From a virus (taxonomy: Duplodnaviria > Caudoviricetes): a DNA stretch of 64,000 bases. The stretch is from the IMG/VR virus record IMGVR_UViG_3300010352_001543. One strand, 5' to 3'. The first letter of the stretch is position 1, and every line of letters starts with the position of its first letter. Below, one piece after another: positions 24,896 to 63,094 of this stretch. Under the pieces are notes generated by a model that was given only the letters and a program-made list of their open reading frames with translations, made no database searches and was not told the origin of the DNA. The position numbers and the translations under genes were made by a program.

Positions 24896-26248
24896 CTATT
24901 TTTCGATAAAGACAGTTCGTTTCTTATCATATTCTCTTTCGGGCGCTACTACGGAGCCACAATTATAGCATTTATATAGATGAATATTTTCATCTAAGCT
25001 TATAATTTTTCCATTTGACCACACAGGAGTTAAGTAAATATCTTTATTCTTTATATATTTCAAAGACAACCAATCTATATTTGTTTCTTCTTTCAAAACA
25101 TTTCCTTCTAATATTCTTTTAATATTGATTTTTACCTCTTCTTGATTACTATTCCATTCGTAATCCCAAATAAAATATAAATCTATATTTTTATTTAATG
25201 CTTCCATTTTCTTGTCTAAATGATAAGTAGACTCTTTAAATTTATCAGAATGCCAATATGAACCATTGAATTCAAATCCTATGTTTTTAGAAGGAATTAA
25301 AATATCTATTTCTTGATATTTTAATATTGTTCTATCATTAGTTTTGACCTCATAACCTAAGGATTCGATATAAGTAGAAATTTCTACTTCGGTTTTATTA
25401 ATCAAATGTTTTCCATTGTTCAACGAACATGAAACACCATATCTTTCTATATGAGTTTGTCTTGATTTATTTCTTATTTCTTCCGAACTCCATGAACCAT
25501 ATCTTTCGAGTCTGGTCATTAGTGTTTTTTGTTTACATATATCAGATTGTGATGGATACGCAACACCATATTTTTTTAGATTTGTATCTATTGATTTGTT
25601 TTTTGATTCTTCTAACTGCATTGGATTTTCTACACCATGTTTCTGCATATGTGTTTTCTTGCGTCTATTTATTATTTCATGATTTTGCATTGGATTTTCT
25701 ACACCGTATCTATCGAACATAGTATGTTTTATTATACCTTTAATTTCTTCTGATAGATAAGGAGACTCAACACCATAATTTTTAAAACAAGTTTCTTTAA
25801 ATTTCTTTCTTATTTTTTTAGATTGCATAGGTGATCTTACACCATTATTTTTAAGGCATGTTTCTTGAATCTTATTTTTTATTATATCTAACTTACTTGG
25901 ATTTTCAACACCATATCTTTCTATACATGTTCTTTTCCTTTTTTCTTTTGCTTTTTTCTTTTTACATTTATCACAATCTGATTTATAAACATTATTTTTT
26001 ATCAGATTTAGATTACCCAATAACACTGGTTCTTCTTTACAGGTAGAACAATATAAAATTTCTAATTTTTCATTAAATATATGCCAAAGTCGTTGAATTT
26101 CATTATCATCATAATAATCATCTAAAAATTTAGTCAGCTCTTTTATTTTATCTATTAACTCTGGATTTTTACTTACTGCACTTCTAAATTTATAGATATA
26201 TAATCTAAAATTTTTTGAATCTTCTTTAATTTTTTGTAGTTGTTCCAT
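24896..26248 (-). CDS. putative homing endonuclease with YGVENP repeats and Vsr-like domain
   Basis: About 8 (K/R)YGV.NP-type repeats; EIDI.IP...GFEFNGSYWH. Confidence 0.82.
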   Translation of the reverse strand: MEQLQKIKEDSKNFRLYIYKFRSAVSKNPELIDKIKELTKFLDDYYDDNEIQRLWHIFNEKLEILYCSTCKEEPVLLGNLNLIKNNVYKSDCDKCKKKKAKEKRKRTCIERYGVENPSKLDIIKNKIQETCLKNNGVRSPMQSKKIRKKFKETCFKNYGVESPYLSEEIKGIIKHTMFDRYGVENPMQNHEIINRRKKTHMQKHGVENPMQLEESKNKSIDTNLKKYGVAYPSQSDICKQKTLMTRLERYGSWSSEEIRNKSRQTHIERYGVSCSLNNGKHLINKTEVEISTYIESLGYEVKTNDRTILKYQEIDILIPSKNIGFEFNGSYWHSDKFKESTYHLDKKMEALNKNIDLYFIWDYEWNSNQEEVKINIKRILEGNVLKEETNIDWLSLKYIKNKDIYLTPVWSNGKIISLDENIHLYKCYNCGSVVAPEREYDKKRTVFIEK

Positions 26249-48314: not shown

Positions 48315-49988
48315 TTATATTGAATTTTCTAAATAACTAAAACCTGTTTTGTCCTTATGAACATTAATAACTCTGTCGAACAAATTAAAATCCAAAAGTG
48401 AGTGGTTTATTAAAAATATATGGAGATTTAACTCAGTTGAAATTTCTTTTAAAATTCCACAAACCAACTCTATTGATTCCATGTCTAAACTTGAAAAAAT
48501 TTCGTCTAAGAATAATATATTAATATCACTAAATTTAGTTTTTAGAAGTCGAATGAATCCAATCAATACAGCAAAATCAAATTTCTTACTCTCTCCTGCA
48601 GACAATGTCTCGATACTTAAATCTCTTCCAAGGAAAACAACATTTGTTTCTAAATTTGAATCCAGATTAAGTGAATACCCTAAATTTAGTCTCGATAACA
48701 TTTTATTTATTTCATTATTTAAATGAGGAATAATTTTATCGATTATATGTTTTTTTATTCCTTGTTCACTGAGAATATCAGAAATTATATTAAGAAAATT
48801 TGTTTCATACTGAATTGTTTCCAATTTTTCTTTATGTGTTTCTAATGATTTTTGGTCCTGTTCTATAATTTCATAAAGACCATTAAGTTGGTAACTATTG
48901 TCAGTTAGATTTAATTTTTCTATCTCAGTTTGTAAATGATCTATTTTAACAGACAACCCGTGAATTTTTTTAGTACCTTCATCCCGGATATGCATATATT
49001 TATCCAAACGTTCTGAATGTTTATTTCCTTCGGATTTTAAATCAACTAATGTTCTTGTCAATAAAGTCAATTGATTTTTATAATCTTCTAAATGGTCCAA
49101 GTGTTCTGCTGAGTTGAAGTCAGAACCACACATAGGACATTTTTCATTCCTCTCGTACAGCTCAATTTTCTTTTCTATGGATTTTTTATCAAATTCATAA
49201 CCCTTTTTAACAGTATCATTTTTTTTGATTTTTTCTTTGATCTCATTAATATTTTTATTAATTAATTCAAATTTTTCTCTAAGAATTTGTTCCTTTCCGC
49301 TTAAATCTGCTATTGATTCTTTTAGGGTAGCTTCTTCTATTTTCTGAGCATCATCTATCTGTTTCTGAATTTCATCTGTTTTATTTTGGGTAAGCTGAAT
49401 ATGACTGTATAAGCTATCAATATTATCTTTTAAACTATTTTCTTTTCTCTGATTATCTTTAATTTCATTTTTAATTTCTTCATGCATCATGGTGAGGATA
49501 TTCAAACCAAAAACTCTATCAATAAGATTTCGTTTTTCCTGTTTTTTCATCCGAACAAATGATTTGAATTTATTGATATCCAACACAACTAAATTTTTGA
49601 ACATGAATTGGTCTATATCTAAAATATCATTTTCAATTTGTTGTTGAACATTCTTCTTCCCAGCTATATCAGATAAAACAACATCATTTAAAACAACATT
49701 TAAATTATTAGGAGATACATTTCTTTCTATTGATAATTCACCTTGTTTGGTTTGAATATGAGTTTTAGTATATAAATTTTCATTTACTCTATTAGGGAGG
49801 TCGTAAATCTTTTTTCCTGAAACTCTCCCAAATATGCCAAATTCTAATACTTCAGCTATTGTTGATTTTCCATTTCCGTTATTTGCTGAAATTAAATTTA
49901 AACTTGATATAGATTCAGAGAAATCCAAACTCTGTAGCATATTTCCATATGAGTTAAAATTCTTCCAATAATACTTTAAAATTTTCAA
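48315..49988 (-). CDS. gp46: recombination ATPase gp46 (SbcC/Rad50-like)
   Basis: NGNGKST, CPMC hook, LSAGE, LFLDE. Confidence 0.92.
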   Translation of the reverse strand: MKILKYYWKNFNSYGNMLQSLDFSESISSLNLISANNGNGKSTIAEVLEFGIFGRVSGKKIYDLPNRVNENLYTKTHIQTKQGELSIERNVSPNNLNVVLNDVVLSDIAGKKNVQQQIENDILDIDQFMFKNLVVLDINKFKSFVRMKKQEKRNLIDRVFGLNILTMMHEEIKNEIKDNQRKENSLKDNIDSLYSHIQLTQNKTDEIQKQIDDAQKIEEATLKESIADLSGKEQILREKFELINKNINEIKEKIKKNDTVKKGYEFDKKSIEKKIELYERNEKCPMCGSDFNSAEHLDHLEDYKNQLTLLTRTLVDLKSEGNKHSERLDKYMHIRDEGTKKIHGLSVKIDHLQTEIEKLNLTDNSYQLNGLYEIIEQDQKSLETHKEKLETIQYETNFLNIISDILSEQGIKKHIIDKIIPHLNNEINKMLSRLNLGYSLNLDSNLETNVVFLGRDLSIETLSAGESKKFDFAVLIGFIRLLKTKFSDINILFLDEIFSSLDMESIELVCGILKEISTELNLHIFLINHSLLDFNLFDRVINVHKDKTGFSYLENSI

Positions 49989-50002: not shown

Positions 50003-51097
50003 TTATTTTTCGTCTGCCATTTTTTCATTATTGATAGCATTTTCATACACTACCTTGACTTTGTCCTTTATCAACTGTTTAACCTCATCCGACTGGTTCA
50101 GTGAATTCAAATAATAATTAAGCTCATCATTAATTTGAAATTGATTGAAATTAGAATCCAGTGAGTATGAGGACTCTATTTCATTTTCCATCATAATAAA
50201 TTTGACTTCATTTGTTATCTTAAGTATCTCAGAAAATTTTGTCCAAGAGTATGAATTTTGAAAATTCTTTTTTATTATCAAATCAACTATATTATTTCTA
50301 ATAAGCTGTTCAAATTGTTTCAAAGGAGTGTTCATGAGATCCATGAGGACCAACTGAATAAATTTCGGACTATAATTATTTTCAAAGAAAAGTTCTTCTC
50401 CTGTTTCCAAATCTAAACAAAATATACCCTTTGAATTTTCCCGGTCATTTCTTGTTTGATGAAATGGGTTCCCAACCATTTGGACGTTTCTGTACTTTTG
50501 CTTTAAATGAATATGGCCGGAGTAGACTTTCTTTACTTGTGTTAAATCCTTTGCATCAATTCCATCTTCTAAACACGAAAAATTGTTGTAACGTAGTCCG
50601 GAGAAATCATGATGACAAAAAATATAGTCCGTTTTTTTAGCTTCTTTCAAGGCATCTAAAAATGATTCGTTGTTTTGTCTCCAGGGAATAAGTAGTATGT
50701 TCTTGGAGCAACATTCATATATTACAGGATCTTTATATACTTCAATATTAGGTATATAATTAAAAACATTCAATGAATTAATATCATTGCTATTTTTATA
50801 TGCAGTGTCATGATTTCCTATTATTATTTTTATAGGTAGTAACTTAGAAATATCAACAAATAAATTTACTACACGGTTCAAGACTATAGAATTAATAGAA
50901 AGACGATTATCAAACACATCACCTAATATAAATAAAACATCATTCGGTTTTATATTTTCTTTTAGTAGAGGTATAAAGAAATTTTCAAAATAATCAACTG
51001 TTTGGTCTAGCCATTTCATCGAGACCGCATGCAACCCAAAATGAATATCAGCGAGCATCCATATTCTTTGAAATTGTTCTTGATGTTTTTTGATCAT
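50003..51097 (-). CDS. gp47: recombination nuclease gp47 (SbcD/Mre11-like)
   Basis: DIHFG, GDVFDNR, GNHD, SGHIH. Confidence 0.92.
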   Translation of the reverse strand: MIKKHQEQFQRIWMLADIHFGLHAVSMKWLDQTVDYFENFFIPLLKENIKPNDVLFILGDVFDNRLSINSIVLNRVVNLFVDISKLLPIKIIIGNHDTAYKNSNDINSLNVFNYIPNIEVYKDPVIYECCSKNILLIPWRQNNESFLDALKEAKKTDYIFCHHDFSGLRYNNFSCLEDGIDAKDLTQVKKVYSGHIHLKQKYRNVQMVGNPFHQTRNDRENSKGIFCLDLETGEELFFENNYSPKFIQLVLMDLMNTPLKQFEQLIRNNIVDLIIKKNFQNSYSWTKFSEILKITNEVKFIMMENEIESSYSLDSNFNQFQINDELNYYLNSLNQSDEVKQLIKDKVKVVYENAINNEKMADEK

Positions 51098-57964: not shown

Positions 57965-59320
57965 TTAAATCTCTTCTTCAATATCTTCATCTTCAATAAC
58001 ATATTGTTCTATTTCCTTAAATTCGGAAAGTATTTTACTGTCAATATCTTTTACAATATTATGCTTCGAAAATAAAGTAGATTCTATTTTTTTTGTTAAT
58101 TTTTCTAACTTTTTTTCGTCATCCGTCTTGCAGTTGACTAAGTCCATTCTTGTCTTGTTGGATAGATTTTGTAAACTTTCAATTGAAAGCTCCCTTATCT
58201 TTATGTTGTTTAATCTTTGTTTAATTTCAGATCCAAACTTTTTCAAATACAATTCTATTTCTTTCTCTGACCTTTTTTTCTCTACCATAAATTCAATGAA
58301 TTTAATTTTTTCATCCACGAATTGAATTTCTTTAATAACATTACTTATTAACTTTTCAGTAAATAATTTTTCATTTAAAAGGACCACGTTTCGAAAATCG
58401 ATTAAATAATCTTTTATGTTAGCATACTCCAGAACCCGGTTGCTTTCAGTGAATGTTATATTTTCTGTTATAACAACACTGACAATCTTTTTCACCGCTT
58501 TTATAAATTCAGGTGTTTGGGATTCTCTATTTATCTTTAAAGTAAAATCAATATGGTCTTTTGAATTATTATCAATTCCTATCTCAAAATCTAAATCGGA
58601 AACAACATCATTAAGTTTTTCTAAAAATGTTTTATACTTTATAAAAGGAGGGACATTATAAATTCGAACTGTGTTTTTTTCTTGAACAACATCACCTTGA
58701 AATAGCCAGCATCTTCCATCTATATCAGCTTGTTTAATAGATCCATTATAATTTTGAAGGTAAGGAGTTAAATCTGCTTTATCATTACCCTTCATGAATT
58801 TTTCTAACTCTTCAAATTTTCTTGGGAGAATTCTAGTAGCGAACCCAACAGCTATACCTATAGTAAAATTTAATAATCCAATCGGAAAATTAACTTTTAG
58901 AGGGTCTTGTGAATAATCTACTAAAGTATAATCATTTATTATTTTATATTCATCTATAATATTTTTAATTTTAGGATTTATTTTAACAGAAGTGTAACGC
59001 GGTGAAGCAGGAGTTTGGTCAACCGGAGAACCGAAAAATCCATCACCTTCTAAAAGATTAACCGCATTTAAATATGGTCGAGCTAATCGGGATATACCAT
59101 TTGATAATGACGCATCACCGTGGTGATACCCTTTAATAATATCACCAACCAGATTCAAGGTTTTCCTAAAATCAGTAGGGGCGGTAGTCAGAATCAATCG
59201 ATGTAGTGGTGTTAATGTATCGAAAAACGACGGAATACCTCTACTTGAAATTGTATATAAAGCATAATCTTTATAGTCATTATTAATATACTCTGAAATT
59301 TGTCTTGTCTTATGAAACAC
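57965..59320 (-). CDS. gp52: type II topoisomerase medium subunit (gp52/GyrA-like)
   Basis: YA.Y...R.IP..D, YHHGD.S, G.FGS, A.PRYT. Confidence 0.92.
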   Translation of the reverse strand: MFHKTRQISEYINNDYKDYALYTISSRGIPSFFDTLTPLHRLILTTAPTDFRKTLNLVGDIIKGYHHGDASLSNGISRLARPYLNAVNLLEGDGFFGSPVDQTPASPRYTSVKINPKIKNIIDEYKIINDYTLVDYSQDPLKVNFPIGLLNFTIGIAVGFATRILPRKFEELEKFMKGNDKADLTPYLQNYNGSIKQADIDGRCWLFQGDVVQEKNTVRIYNVPPFIKYKTFLEKLNDVVSDLDFEIGIDNNSKDHIDFTLKINRESQTPEFIKAVKKIVSVVITENITFTESNRVLEYANIKDYLIDFRNVVLLNEKLFTEKLISNVIKEIQFVDEKIKFIEFMVEKKRSEKEIELYLKKFGSEIKQRLNNIKIRELSIESLQNLSNKTRMDLVNCKTDDEKKLEKLTKKIESTLFSKHNIVKDIDSKILSEFKEIEQYVIEDEDIEEEI

Positions 59321-59609
59321 TTGTTAAATCTCCCAAATCTTCTAAATCTTTTGTTATTCCATTGGCCATGCTATTAAACATATTATATGTTATTTTGTAG
59401 GTAACGCCGGAGTTAAATATCATCCAGTATCCTGAACTTTCTATAGTATCTTCACTATCAATATAGCCAAGAAATGCTATTTCATTAACATTAAAAAATG
59501 TTCTAAAATCGTTTATCTTTGATGTAGCTTGTTTATTTTGTTTATCCAACTCCATATCATCAAGCATTTTAAGTAATCGCTCTTGTTCCTCTAAAGTAAT
59601 TTCTTCCAT
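59310..59609 (-). CDS. hypothetical protein
   Basis: 99 aa ORF. Confidence 0.6.
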   Translation of the reverse strand: MEEITLEEQERLLKMLDDMELDKQNKQATSKINDFRTFFNVNEIAFLGYIDSEDTIESSGYWMIFNSGVTYKITYNMFNSMANGITKDLEDLGDLTSVS

Positions 59610-59612
59610 ATT

Positions 59613-60119
59613 TTAAATCTCTTTATCTTCTACTTTTAACCAATTTTTTCTGTATTTTACATCAGATCCGAAAACTACATCTAAATACTTATCTGATTTT
59701 TTATTTGTTTTAATTTTAACCAGGTTCATATCTTTAAAAATAAATTTCCAGTCCTCTTTGTCCATTGAACCAACACCTTTTAAATATCTTAGATTCTTTT
59801 TGGTTTTATACTCATTATTATCTAAATTATATTCATAGTGTCTTTCTTTATTTTCATCATATGAAATCAACGGCATTATCAATTTATATAATTTGTTTTT
59901 CTTTAACACATCAGGGAACCAACGGGCGAACAGATTCATTAATAAGGCGGTTATGTGGTTACCGTCACAGTTATGAGAAAGTAAATAACAATTATTAATC
60001 TTAATAAAAAAATTATTAATTTCATCCACCTCTATATCATATAATTCAGTTTTTTGTTTAATTTTTTTTATTGATTGAGGCTTCATCAATATAAAATCTT
60101 CTATTCTTAAAATTTCCAT
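59613..60119 (-). CDS. C-intein (aa 1-50) plus topoisomerase II large-subunit C-terminal part (gp60-like)
   Basis: YDIEV...FF...LLSHN|CDGNHI..LL..LF; RYLKG.GS. Confidence 0.92.
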   Translation of the reverse strand: MEILRIEDFILMKPQSIKKIKQKTELYDIEVDEINNFFIKINNCYLLSHNCDGNHITALLMNLFARWFPDVLKKNKLYKLIMPLISYDENKERHYEYNLDNNEYKTKKNLRYLKGVGSMDKEDWKFIFKDMNLVKIKTNKKSDKYLDVVFGSDVKYRKNWLKVEDKEI

Positions 60120-61208
60120 TTAATTTAATTCCATTATAGTGTTATTATCAGTTATCTGATACAAAGCATCTAATAAATTAGTCTCTGTTAGTTTATATGA
60201 ATCCCAAATGATTAAAATAGATACCGGGTTCATTTTTTCTTTAATTTTTTCTAATCGGTTTTTGTCTTTTTTCCATATCTGTTCATATGTCATTTTTGTT
60301 TGTTTCAATATTTCTGTTCCTTGATATATTGCTGGATTTCCATGCCAATAATCTCCATAATATTCTATTATAACATTTAAATTTGGTAAATAATAATCTA
60401 CGAAATAATTTCTTTTTTCCATTTCTACCATATATTCCATGACATATTCAAAATTGAGATTATCTAAGATGTCTTTGATTTTAAAACTTATTTTCGAAGG
60501 TCCACTTTGATACTTCCAACTTCGTTTAGAAGCTTGTATTTTTTTCCATCTCTTGGTTCCTTTTATTTCACCAAATCTCTCAATATTTCCGTTTAAACTA
60601 CTCGAATATATTAAAGCGTTAGTCTTATGCTCCCATTTTTTGGTTCCTTCTATAATACCAAACTTATCTATATAATATTGTTTAGTTGAACTATAAGCAA
60701 TTTTATTATTTCTTTCCTTATATTTCTCTGTTCCTTTTGATTCACCATAACGTTCTATAAAACCTTTTAAATCACATCTTGAAGTATTTTCTCTAACTCC
60801 TCTGGAACGGATAAATTTTTGTTCTTTTATCGAAATCTTTTTTAATTTTGCTCCATATTCCATTATACAAGAAATTCTATCGAATTTTATTCCTTTGTTA
60901 TAAGGAACTCCCAAATATTCTAAACTTCTTTTATTCAAACATTCTATATCATTACAACTATATACTTCATATGACCTATAGAATGTTTTTTCTGAATAAT
61001 CTACTGTTAGATTAGGGATAGCATCTCTGTTACAAAAAGCACAATTTTCTATTTTAAATTCTGGTTTAATATTTATGAATTCTTTGTCGTAATCTGAAAA
61101 ATATTCATATAATGTTAAATTATGTACTCTTTTAATATGGGAACCTACATAGCTATTATTTGCTGATACTTCTTTGCCACATATTTTACATTTATATTTT
61201 TCCGTCAT
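60120..61208 (-). CDS. free-standing Vsr-like homing endonuclease
   Basis: CKICG Zn finger; (K/R)(Y/F)G..EG repeats; VDYY...IIEYYGDYWHGNP...D..R. Confidence 0.85.
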   Translation of the reverse strand: MTEKYKCKICGKEVSANNSYVGSHIKRVHNLTLYEYFSDYDKEFINIKPEFKIENCAFCNRDAIPNLTVDYSEKTFYRSYEVYSCNDIECLNKRSLEYLGVPYNKGIKFDRISCIMEYGAKLKKISIKEQKFIRSRGVRENTSRCDLKGFIERYGESKGTEKYKERNNKIAYSSTKQYYIDKFGIIEGTKKWEHKTNALIYSSSLNGNIERFGEIKGTKRWKKIQASKRSWKYQSGPSKISFKIKDILDNLNFEYVMEYMVEMEKRNYFVDYYLPNLNVIIEYYGDYWHGNPAIYQGTEILKQTKMTYEQIWKKDKNRLEKIKEKMNPVSILIIWDSYKLTETNLLDALYQITDNNTIMELN

Positions 61209-61262
61209 ATATGATTTCCGTAATTTTTATTAATATTATATATATTAACACGGATATCATAT
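61209..61262 (-). promoter_or_regulatory. RBS-sequestering hairpin with AATATATA motif in its loop
   Basis: ATATGATATCCGT/ACGGAAATCATAT abuts the ATG. Confidence 0.75.
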
Positions 61263-61264
61263 TT

Positions 61265-63094
61265 TTACTTTTTTATTAAAAAACAATCAGTTTTTTTTAT
61301 ATTTTTTGCTTTTTCTTGAATAACTTCATTGTCTCTATAGATATAAAAAATATGATTTTCTGAACATCTAATAACCTCACCATTTACAATAAATTCAAAT
61401 ATTCTGTCTTTGGTCGTTTTTATAATTTGATTAATTTTATGAAAATTATTATCCGAACCTAATACCATATCATCATAAGTAACATCTTTTAAATGTTTAT
61501 CTCCAGAATCAGTTTTAATTAAAGTCATACCGTCTAAACAATCCATATCACTTGTTATAACTACTTTATCATAAGTACAAGTTTTACCACCATCCTCTAC
61601 ATTCAAGTTTAAAATATTCATTAAATCTATTATTTCTTGATTGTTAGATAAGTCAGACAAATGCCTGGCGTTTTTGATTTTCCCTTTCAATGCGTAAATT
61701 GAATGATTAACTGGGTCTCGTTGGGAAGAAATCGCTGCCTTAGATGAGCCACCCTCAGTTATAAAGAGAATTGATTTGTTTTTCGAAGGAATAAATTTAT
61801 CAGAAAAAATAAGTTGTTTATTTTTCTTTTTATTCCTTTTAATCTTCTTTAAGTCTTCCGAATAATTTTTATTTTCTATAGCTATTATTATATTTTCATA
61901 TAAATCAGATTTTATGAAATCTTTACAGACATGTTCCTTCGGTTTAAACGGCATTAACTCTTCCATCATTGCTCTTGAAACAATAAACCTGTTTTTGTTT
62001 TGTTCTTGAAACTGAACATGCTTTGGTGGAAGATTAATGATTATAGCAGTCTCATAAAATTCAGAAGCTGTTTTTGAACTAAATAGTCTTTCATTTATTT
62101 TTTCTTGATAGAAGGTTTGATGAAATCCACCACATAATGAACCATTAACAAACGATATAGAGGTTGTCTTATCTTTTATGGCTTCCCAAATATAAAGCTC
62201 TGTATATTTGTTAAGTTTAAAATGAAATGAATTTGAAGGTAGTAAAGGAATATTTAAATCCAAAACTTCTTTATCCCAAATCAATTCGAATTCAACCGTC
62301 CGGAGGTTATCATCGTTCAGCTTAGAAAAATTTCTGAAAAGGCATTTAGTAAAAACAAATTCTTTATCAAATTTAATATTTTTAAAAGATTTCTTCCGGG
62401 CAATATATGTTATAGTTGTGCCCTTAGTAGTTTTTGATTTTTCGTATGTTTTGCCTTCAGTAACGAAATCCAACCACTGCTGTTCATAAATGTATCCAGA
62501 ATTGGTTGTCTCTACTTCAAATAAATCAGAAAGCATATTGACCGCTGAAAGTCCAACACCATTCGTTCCGATCACAGTGACATCAGATTTATCATTCTGA
62601 AAATTTGATCCTGCTCTAAGTAACGAAACTGCCGTTTCTACATTGGTCAACCCGGAGGTTATATTAATTTCATTTGGATTCATAAATCCACGACCATCGT
62701 CACTAACAATCACCTTATTAGTGTTAGAATTTATATTAACCGAAATCTTTTTAAATTCATATCCTTCTTTCTTACAGCGAAGTGCTTCATCAAATGCATT
62801 GTCGATAACTTCATCCAATAATCGATAAAATCCATCTGAATAGTTAATTTCTTTCTTTACTAAAAGACCATCTTCGAAAATTGGTACTGTTTTAGTTATC
62901 ATTTCAGTGGTACCAACATACATTGCCGGTCTAAGTAAAATATGTTCTCTTTCCGATAAATGAATCACTTCACGATTCACCAAATCATTGTTTTTTTCTT
63001 TTTTCAAATCATGTTTCCTGTAAATTATATCTTTTATACAACAATGGCCGATGAAATTAAAATTCGTTTCATCGACCATCTTAAAATAATTCAA
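61265..63094 (-). CDS. gp39: topoisomerase II large subunit (gp39/GyrB-like) plus N-intein (last 91 aa)
   Basis: EHIL.RP.MY.G, E.IDN..DE, DDGRG, G.NGVG, TEGGS, LKGK, SDMD|CLDG. Confidence 0.93.
   Translation of the reverse strand: MNYFKMVDETNFNFIGHCCIKDIIYRKHDLKKEKNNDLVNREVIHLSEREHILLRPAMYVGTTEMITKTVPIFEDGLLVKKEINYSDGFYRLLDEVIDNAFDEALRCKKEGYEFKKISVNINSNTNKVIVSDDGRGFMNPNEINITSGLTNVETAVSLLRAGSNFQNDKSDVTVIGTNGVGLSAVNMLSDLFEVETTNSGYIYEQQWLDFVTEGKTYEKSKTTKGTTITYIARKKSFKNIKFDKEFVFTKCLFRNFSKLNDDNLRTVEFELIWDKEVLDLNIPLLPSNSFHFKLNKYTELYIWEAIKDKTTSISFVNGSLCGGFHQTFYQEKINERLFSSKTASEFYETAIIINLPPKHVQFQEQNKNRFIVSRAMMEELMPFKPKEHVCKDFIKSDLYENIIIAIENKNYSEDLKKIKRNKKKNKQLIFSDKFIPSKNKSILFITEGGSSKAAISSQRDPVNHSIYALKGKIKNARHLSDLSNNQEIIDLMNILNLNVEDGGKTCTYDKVVITSDMDCLDGMTLIKTDSGDKHLKDVTYDDMVLGSDNNFHKINQIIKTTKDRIFEFIVNGEVIRCSENHIFYIYRDNEVIQEKAKNIKKTDCFLIKK

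Follow-up and report, generated by a model that had tools for sequence, protein, structure and literature searches.

Fractured genes of uncultured phages have been described at the gp41-1 to gp41-9, NrdA, NrdJ, IMPDH, DnaE, ligase, and terminase loci (Dassa et al. 2009, PMC2677866). In this layout, the N-part of a host enzyme fused to an N-intein is followed by a free-standing endonuclease gene and then by a C-intein fused to the C-part of the enzyme. The published split-intein fragments are 88 to 105 aa and 33 to 54 aa long, the 3′ end of the endonuclease gene overlaps the start of the C-intein by 6 to 69 bp, and hairpins were found in 15 of the 16 endonuclease leaders (PMC2677866). Eight enzyme types are given in that paper, with topoisomerase or gyrase mentioned zero times. 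Non-covalent association has been proposed for the T4 topoisomerase pieces gp39/gp60 and shown for Aeh1 NrdA-a/NrdA-b (PMC3045599). The intein of CroV Top2-a is contiguous and carries a complete endonuclease (PMC3423634).

Here, we analyzed a 64,000-nucleotide stretch of DNA (the window) from a very large (jumbo), AT-rich phage. The ORF listing confirms the three minus-strand ORFs of a preliminary description, 609, 362, and 168 aa long (Table 1), and the limits given there for the two intein halves agree with it exactly. The 609-aa ORF begins at a TTG (63094) in the ORF listing and at an ATG (63079) in the database copy. Its first ~35 residues are absent from relatives, and translation probably starts at the 63079 ATG or further downstream rather than at the TTG. 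The putative mobile cassette is 1571 bp long. When we scanned for promoters and terminators, sites were no more frequent than in shuffled sequence.

Table 1. Features of the split topoisomerase locus and the adjacent subunit gene in the window
Feature	Coordinates	Strand	Description
ORF N-half	61265-63094	minus	609 aa; end ...VVITSDMD/CLDG...RCSENH...FLIKK
N-extein, predicted topoisomerase II large subunit, gp39+60 type	61541..63094	minus	GHKL ATPase, transducer, first TOPRIM half
N-intein, 91 aa	61268-61540 (61265..61540 with TAA stop)	minus	Cys1 (CLDG), block B CSENH, FLIKK end
RNA hairpin	61209..61262	minus	within 56-nt spacer before endonuclease
Predicted free-standing homing endonuclease, 362 aa	60120..61208	minus	Vsr-like by profile and fold
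ORF C-half	59613-60119	minus	168 aa; MEIL...LYDIEV...LLSHN/CDGNHI
C-intein, 50 aa	59970..60119	minus	block F LYDIEV, block G LLSHN
C-extein, 118 aa	59613..59969	minus	+1 Cys, second TOPRIM half, TOPRIM_C / gp60-equivalent region
gp52-like (GyrA-like) DNA-cleavage subunit	57965..59320	minus	PF00521 E 2e-39, phrog_551 E 2.4e-63

The N-extein matches the Pfam families HATPase_c and Toprim as well as phrog_543 (E 6.5e-65), and its best PDB matches are a phage topoisomerase (8ylu) and T4 gp39-gp60 (8yo3). The TOPRIM Glu motif, EGGSS, lies at residue 447 of the N-half, and the N-extein ends in ...VVITSDMD. The C-extein opens with the +1 Cys in CDGNHITALLMNLF, which is the second half of the TOPRIM DxDxDGxH motif; it matches PF16898 (TOPRIM_C), phrog_543 at positions 517 to 639, and structures of human Top2 and T4 gp39-gp60. 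When the intein halves are removed and the exteins joined, the product is colinear with intact homologues, with zero residues added or missing: the exteins align to residues 20 to 494 and 496 to 609 of the uninterrupted homologue L006, and the +1 Cys corresponds to residue 495. Approximately 78 IMG/VR homologues are uninterrupted, about 600 aa long, and carry DxDxDGxH. The joined junction reads D-M-D-C-D-G-N-H-I, in which the +1 Cys fills the variable x position of DxDxDG; this bears out the claim in the preliminary description that joining the exteins restores this motif. The set of large-subunit features is complete, comprising the GHKL ATPase, the TOPRIM Glu motif, DMD/CDG after joining, and a separate gp52-like gene. 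Judged from their sequence, the exteins constitute the large subunit of a type IIA topoisomerase of the phage gp39+60 type.

The two intein pieces cover PF14890 (Intein_splicing) complementarily, the N piece at positions 26 to 92 and the C piece at positions 118 to 155, the end of the model, although each half alone scores below the Pfam gathering threshold. Among solved structures, the N-intein best matches the gp41-1 split intein (6qaz, E 3.5e-4), in keeping with the likeness to gp41-1 pointed out earlier. The C-intein alone had no sequence match in the PDB, and phrog_7229 spans residues 13 to 168 of the C-half ORF. The marks of class 1 intein fragments are present in both pieces: Cys1 (CLDG) and block B RCSENH in the N-fragment, and block F LYDIEV, block G LLSHN, the terminal Asn, and the +1 Cys in the C-fragment. 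Cys1 and SENH are invariant among the window, P0008, and L005, and no exception to Cys1, E-x-H of block B, YDI.V, the terminal Asn, or the +1 Cys occurs in the wider set (8/8 N-halves, 13/13 C-halves). Block B carries Ser where the canonical residue is Thr, and the residue before the terminal Asn is Lys in L005 instead of His. By these marks, the halves probably belong to a naturally split class 1 (Hint domain) intein. The two halves in the window carry almost no net charge (0 and -1), so the electrostatic pairing known from other split inteins is not evident here.

At its N-terminus, the endonuclease has a Cys/His zinc-finger-like module, which is followed by helical repeats and, at the C-terminus, a Vsr-like core. 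Its family profile matches Vsr (1odg, 1vsr, 1cw0; E 0.004), and the catalytic Asp and His coincide in the alignment. The AF2 model of the protein has a pLDDT of 88.7, and the top Foldseek matches of this model are 1vsr, 1cw0, and 3r3p (I-Bth0305I), with a probability of 1.00 and a TM of 0.56 to 0.58 on target. D271, E282, H289, and D315 are strictly or almost strictly conserved among 43 homologues and fall in the part aligned to the catalytic region of Vsr, and homologues at E<=1e-3 number 4299 cluster representatives. By profile and predicted fold, then, the endonuclease is Vsr-like and of the I-Bth0305I type, and the order of N-intein, Vsr-like endonuclease, and C-intein in the preliminary description holds. 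We sought a second intein and paralogous endonucleases in the window; there was no second intein, and the only paralogous gene encodes a second free-standing Vsr-like endonuclease, at 24896-26248.

The hairpin upstream of the endonuclease gene has an MFE of -15.2 kcal/mol (z -3.56), and none of 200 shuffled sequences (0/200) folds equally well. At the equivalent position, L005 has a hairpin with a z of -5.29, and a CCGU/ACGG core is common to both. The 3′ arm of the window's hairpin ends immediately before the endonuclease AUG, so the hairpin probably restrains translation of the endonuclease. We did not find the late-promoter element TATAAATA in it.

The window's proteins were called on five contigs, and the same cassette is present in L005, a 260-kb IMG/VR phage contig whose proteins are 36 to 39% identical to those of the window, and in P0008 and P0002-P0005. 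L005 also has an orthologue of the endonuclease (E 1e-47) and a gp52-like gene directly following the C-half, and L091 has the same split without any endonuclease. In all, at least four diverged split-intein pairs, 32 to 72% identical, occupy the TOPRIM site. Across six relatives, the intein halves are at least as conserved as the exteins (71 versus 61%, and 74 to 78 versus 59 to 61%); in the comparison with P0008, the N-intein is 71% identical versus 61% for the extein. The intein-less allele L006 (D-G-D-V-DGNHI) and the C-extein of the split relative P0005 share 97% identity, and the boundaries of the intein are therefore fixed. A second intein-less allele, L007, is 71 to 73% identical to L005.

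Two kinds of relative had been named as informative in the preliminary description. Phages with an intact gene were found, L006 and L007 among them, whereas a search for longer proteins containing the C-intein region, which provides weak evidence, returned no contiguous intein at this site. With the C-half, the N-extein, and the N-intein as tblastn queries, INPHARED (cultured and GenBank phages) yielded no close relative and no intein at the site. Matches in Milchi, POP12, D479, MHG19, and PTm5 that apparently reached into the C-intein were rejected; these are ordinary contiguous genes.

Very probably, a T4-type topoisomerase II large-subunit gene has been invaded by a cassette of a split mini-intein and a Vsr-like endonuclease gene, and the two halves of its product are trans-spliced. 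Our observations are the gene anatomy, the colinearity of the exteins, the conservation of catalytic residues, the predicted endonuclease fold, and the empty-site alleles; splicing, endonuclease activity, and homing are inferred. The cassette would be a mini-intein that is split in turn by a free-standing homing endonuclease gene, such that two polypeptides would be made, one comprising the N-extein and the 91-aa N-intein and the other the 50-aa C-intein and the C-extein. The intein halves may pair into a Hint fold and undergo class-1 trans-splicing via Cys1, S-E-N-H of block B, the terminal Asn50, and the +1 Cys. With ...SDMD thereby joined to CDGNHI..., the metal-binding motif D-M-D-C-D-G-N-H-I would exist only in the spliced protein, and the spliced large subunit would then partner the gp52-like subunit. 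The endonuclease, its start masked by the hairpin, would cut intein-less alleles (DxD-V-DG) of co-infecting relatives and thereby spread the cassette; the empty sites of L006 and L007 are candidate substrates.

Covalent joining may not be needed if the halves only associate and the intein fragments serve as dimerization tails, with no peptide bond formed. Phage enzymes split by endonuclease genes can function without splicing (PMC3045599), and T4 topoisomerase II is active as gp39 + gp60 + gp52. However, association alone would not need conserved splicing residues, and these are all retained among relatives that are only 35 to 45% identical. The window's break also separates the second Asp of the metal-binding DxDxD from the third, so that, without splicing, the complex would have to accommodate a 141-residue domain inside the catalytic loop; the T4 break lies elsewhere, between EGDSA and DADHDG. 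Given these observations, we regard purely non-covalent association as improbable, and protein trans-splicing to the DMD-C-DG TOPRIM motif as the most likely mechanism.

The gene could instead be degenerating into a pseudogene after disruption by a selfish element, in a phage that depends on host topoisomerases. Homing endonuclease insertions are able to inactivate genes, and the gene at 24896-26248 shows that the window contains another free-standing endonuclease of the same kind. Such decay is nevertheless very unlikely here, where both ORFs are intact with every ATPase and TOPRIM motif, the gp52-like partner gene is intact, and the split layout is retained, with exteins and inteins equally conserved, in lineages diverged to 36 to 45% identity. 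Finally, a contiguous intein with a nested endonuclease might merely seem split, owing to misassembly or a recoded stop, or the locus might be an assembly chimera. The C-intein ATG does follow the endonuclease TAA directly and in frame, with no spacer and no overlap, as such an artifact would have it, but the N-half stop and the endonuclease start are in different frames and 56 nt apart, and in L005 the C-half is out of frame with the endonuclease. Calls of the same proteins on five contigs and a split shared by independent loci, some of them without an endonuclease (L091), make an artifact scarcely credible.

Single-chain, eukaryote-like topoisomerase II genes on other AT-rich viral contigs carry, at the same site, inteins related to the trans-splicing pair proposed here. 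We rejected giant eukaryotic viruses as the source of these contigs: T4-type terminase, PhoH, and radical-SAM genes are present on the single contig that we examined, which gave no match to an NCLDV capsid. We propose, tentatively and with slightly less than even confidence, that the TOPRIM-site inteins are one allelic family that has moved between T4-type large-subunit genes and single-chain eukaryote-like topoisomerase II genes, with the invariant DxD-x-DG codons as the common homing target. If so, this family would contain several diverged, possibly orthogonal natural split inteins that have Cys at the +1 junction, and the metal site of the enzyme would be completed only post-translationally.

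The locus is a further example, in topoisomerase II, of a gene layout known since 2009. It shares with the published fractured genes the order of its parts, a Vsr-like endonuclease, a hairpin before the endonuclease start, and an endonuclease stop that abuts the C-intein start, and its fragments of 91 and 50 aa are inside the published size range. It differs in its host enzyme and in a site inside TOPRIM DxDxDG, in the lack of the published overlap between endonuclease and C-intein, in the weak similarity of its intein to gp41-1, and in a hairpin without the late-promoter element. The novelty suggested in the preliminary description is reduced: our literature search returned no report of a topoisomerase with a split intein, but what the locus adds to the known layout is one more host gene. 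Topoisomerase II, with a break inside the TOPRIM metal-binding motif, would join a short list of phage replication enzymes with natural split inteins. The diverged pairs at one site are candidate new orthogonal trans-splicing tools, and the matched occupied and empty alleles make the homing endonuclease target directly testable.

The gp41-1 intein has a C fragment of 37 aa and a +1 Ser. The window's intein resembles it (6QAZ, 6RIZ) in the C-L-D start, I-x-C-S-E-x-H in block B, and IEV in block F, and differs in its 50-aa C fragment and +1 Cys. With I-Bth0305I (3R3P) and Vsr (1VSR, 1CW0), the endonuclease shares the predicted catalytic-core fold and the Asp/Glu/His/Asp residues, but its core is fused to the N-terminal module and helical repeats. 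CroV, also a large DNA virus, likewise carries an intein in a type IIA topoisomerase, Top2-a, although that intein is contiguous and the window's is split.

The T4 39/mobA/60 locus involves the same enzyme family and the same TOPRIM domain, also broken by a homing-endonuclease insertion, and leaves a small C-terminal piece of similar size (160 aa for gp60 versus 168 aa for the window's C-half). The T4 break is approximately 10 to 20 residues upstream, between EGDSA (gp39 residue 415) and DADHDG (gp60 residue 41), mobA is a defective HNH endonuclease, the tails have no intein motifs, and the subunits remain separate. As the preliminary description noted, mobA splits gp39/gp60 and no intein is involved (PMC3045599). 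The break points differ as well: the window's break is inside DxDxDG, and its tails are intein halves. The locus provides a natural contrast to T4, in which the same domain is broken nearby and reassembled without splicing.

Every gene of the topoisomerase region lies on the minus strand in the window's ORF listing, which bears out the coordinates and residues assigned to the split locus in the preliminary description. The N-half matches Pfam HATPase_c and Toprim and phrog_543 (E 6.5e-65), and its best solved structures are the phage topoisomerase 8ylu and T4 gp39-gp60 8yo3. Its last residues homologous to uninterrupted relatives are ...VVITSDMD, after which 91 more (CLDGMTLIK...RCSENHIFY...FLIKK) precede the stop. 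The endonuclease TAA stop directly abuts the ATG of the C-half, whose first 50 residues end ...LYDIEV...LLSHN and are followed by CDGNHITALLMNLF..., the part corresponding to TOPRIM_C and phrog_543 positions 517-639. The true start of the N-half is uncertain, because the TTG at 63094 gives ~35 extra residues not found in relatives and the database copy begins at ATG 63079 (window 63079-63094, minus strand). The acidic ORF, which has no Pfam or PHROG match, overlaps the GTG start of the gp52-like gene; it is absent from L005, a 260-kb IMG/VR contig in which gp52 comes directly after the C-half.

Features of the split topoisomerase II loci and of other genes discussed (window coordinates unless a locus is named)
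Feature	Location	Strand	Description
N-half ORF	61265-63094	-	609 aa, topoisomerase II large subunit
Spacer	between N-half and endonuclease ORF	-	56 nt
Endonuclease ORF	60120-61208	-	362 aa
C-half ORF	59613-60119	-	168 aa
Acidic ORF	59310-59609	-	99 aa, between C-half and gp52-like gene
gp52-like subunit	3' of C-half and 99-aa ORF	-	PF00521, E 2e-39
Second endonuclease	24896-26248	-	450 aa; phrog_3339, E 5e-50
SbcC-like ORF	48315-49988	-	557 aa
Upstream neighbour of SbcC-like ORF	50003-51097	-	364 aa
L005 N-half	L005		...ATDSD|CLSGD...CSENH...FFMISK
L005 C-half	L005		...LAKN|CDGEH
L005 endonuclease	L005		orthologue of window's; 32% identity, E 1e-47
Single-chain locus	L091:1384-5221		~60 bp from N-half stop to C-half start; no endonuclease gene
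Single-chain locus	L095		small ORF between halves
Single-chain locus	L086:2394-5995		3.6 kb between halves: HNH-like ORF (minus strand), DPPY-motif methyltransferase, possible restriction endonuclease
Single-chain loci	L092, L094, L096		repeat protein between halves

The two additional pieces match opposite ends of one Pfam Intein_splicing domain (N piece, model positions 26-92; C piece, positions 118-155). Among solved structures, the N piece is matched best by the naturally split intein gp41-1 (6qaz, E 3.5e-4); the alignment takes in I-x-C-S-E-x-H, and the IEV...HLFY block from the C-terminal end of gp41-1 is seen too. The class-1 splicing residues are complete: Cys1, block B S-x-x-H, block F Asp, terminal His-Asn, and +1 Cys. 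Judged from sequence, protein trans-splicing is the most likely reading of the locus; splicing of the N-half to the C-half would complete the TOPRIM metal site.

Intact relatives, suggested as a check in the preliminary description, were found at approximately 78 of the 80 IMG/VR loci that the C-half retrieved; these encode one uninterrupted protein of 593 to 621 aa, most with a clear DxDxDGxH motif. When the window exteins are aligned with one of these proteins, L006, they cover its residues 20-494 and 496-609. The +1 Cys takes the place of residue 495, at which D-x-D-x-D-G has its variable x and relatives carry V, P, S, Y, or H; splicing would therefore yield D-M-D-C-D-G-N-H-I, with no residue lost or gained. 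Empty-site alleles can be close to split ones: L006 (ATDGD-V-DGNHIASLILNFF...) is 97% identical to the split P0005 C-extein, and L007 (ATDQD-V-DGEHI) is 71 to 73% identical to L005.

In a collection of 5.8 billion proteins, we detected four other C-halves (P0002-P0005, 45 to 66% identical) and a single other N-half (P0008; overall alignment identity 63%), and no split halves besides these and the window's own, which are called on 5 contigs (longest 280,711 bp). L005 holds the entire cassette, then gp52, with an insert of 1582 bp compared to 1571 bp in the window. Between the window and P0008, the N-intein is 71% identical and the extein 61%; for P0002 and P0003, the C-intein is 74 to 78% identical and the extein 59 to 61%; for L005, intein against extein identities are 36% against 39% and 35% against 45%. 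In these alignments the intein halves match or exceed the host enzyme in conservation, which points to selection acting on the intein itself.

The main rival explanation is that the halves assemble non-covalently without splicing, a mode proposed for T4 gp39/gp60 and demonstrated for Aeh1 NrdA. However, every catalytic residue of the intein is kept at 35 to 45% identity, and the break falls inside DxDxD rather than between motifs; non-covalent assembly is therefore disfavoured relative to trans-splicing.

Scans with the C-intein plus junction recovered nine more loci (L086, L089-L096), on AT-rich contigs (22 to 30% GC), in which a single-chain, eukaryote-like topoisomerase II (best PDB match yeast Top2, E 7.8e-116) is split at the window's position, with junctions ...ADAD|CIDENTLV...GENH...KKK and M...MYDIEVEDDNTFYIS...ILVHN|CDGNHIRGL. 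The DNA separating the intein halves varies among them: the L091 arrangement looks like the state after endonuclease loss, and the L086 insert genes constitute restriction-modification-like cargo where a homing endonuclease is expected. Genes for T4-type terminase, PhoH, radical-SAM proteins, and PolB also lie on the L086 contig; no NCLDV capsid match was obtained there, and the contig probably belongs to a tailed phage. All eight topoisomerase-site inteins group in one clade (support 100/98) relative to three DnaE split inteins in a maximum-likelihood tree built from joined halves, with no resolved branching order inside the clade. In L093 (4617-6967), the A (cleavage) part of the single-chain enzyme holds a second split intein (first ORF ending ...ASYHHGN|CLEYNTEILL...CTPNHKF..., next ORF beginning MKIKKIQKIISDIPLKFYDIEVEEH...), so this enzyme would need two trans-splicing events.

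The endonuclease would cleave empty alleles and promote spread into them. Its phmmer search returned 4299 cluster representatives at E<=1e-3, and a 43-sequence profile matches Vsr (1odg, 1vsr, 1cw0) across the catalytic core (E 0.004), pairing the conserved Asp, the G-x-x-W-H histidine, and a downstream Asp; the match to I-Bth0305I (3r3p) is weak. The top Foldseek matches of its AlphaFold model (pLDDT 88.7) are 1vsr, 1cw0, and 3r3p, all with probability 1.00 (23 to 24% identity to 3r3p). DNA is probably bound through the C-x2-C...H-x4-H N-terminal module and the helical repeats. In the spacer, positions 61209-61262 fold into a hairpin (-15.2 kcal/mol, z -3.56); its 3' arm finishes at the endonuclease AUG. 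The equivalent place in L005 also has a hairpin (z -5.29), and a CCGU/ACGG core is common to both. Dassa et al. 2009 found hairpins in 15 of 16 endonuclease leaders of fractured genes and tied them to sequestration of the ribosome-binding site, an effect demonstrated for mobE (PMC2677866). The second free-standing endonuclease in the window, with many YGVENP-type repeats, has the ...FEFNGSYWH core in common with the first; it adjoins a baseplate-like gene and fractures no gene.

Other broken genes were seen. In L087 (4900-11700), DnaE (Pol III alpha) is in at least four pieces with several split inteins, and between two of these sits a Vsr-like endonuclease (...VAVEIYGDFWHANP) that is related to the one in the window (E 3e-15). 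The L006 contig (G003:C1:12039-13605) has Intein_splicing matches to model positions 14-114 and 114-155, ~750 bp apart in another gene, which may mark a different fractured gene. The window's SbcC-like ORF matches phrog_77 from profile position 296 only; the N-part that it lacks may be its upstream neighbour, in which case this gene too would be in two pieces.

The preliminary description proposed that the split intein at this host gene and site may be new. Topoisomerase is absent from the host genes of Dassa et al. 2009 (gp41, NrdA, NrdJ, IMPDH, DnaE, ligase, terminase, and one unknown protein; PMC2677866), and full-text searches turned up no report of a topoisomerase with a naturally split intein. 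Contiguous inteins are known in GyrA, GyrB, Top6B, and CroV Top2 (CroV in PMC3423634). Given that phrog_7229 (172 positions; sole annotation 'DNA topoisomerase II') begins its match to the C-half at residue 13, similar C-halves may already lie unrecognised in phage databases. The split locus is real and well supported, if not surprising for a specialist, and is useful as a split-intein source.

The T4 break differs in being made by a defective HNH gene, and the T4 tails show no intein motifs. In T4 (L097:2458-5328), ~39 C-terminal residues of gp39 (...GDTIIVNENDEVQINGKWITVGELRKNL) and the first ~20 of gp60 are missing from uninterrupted homologues; PMC3045599 discusses these stretches as 'tails'. 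Because EGDSA lies in gp39 (residue 415) and DADHDG in gp60 (residue 41), the T4 break is ~10-20 residues upstream of the window's.
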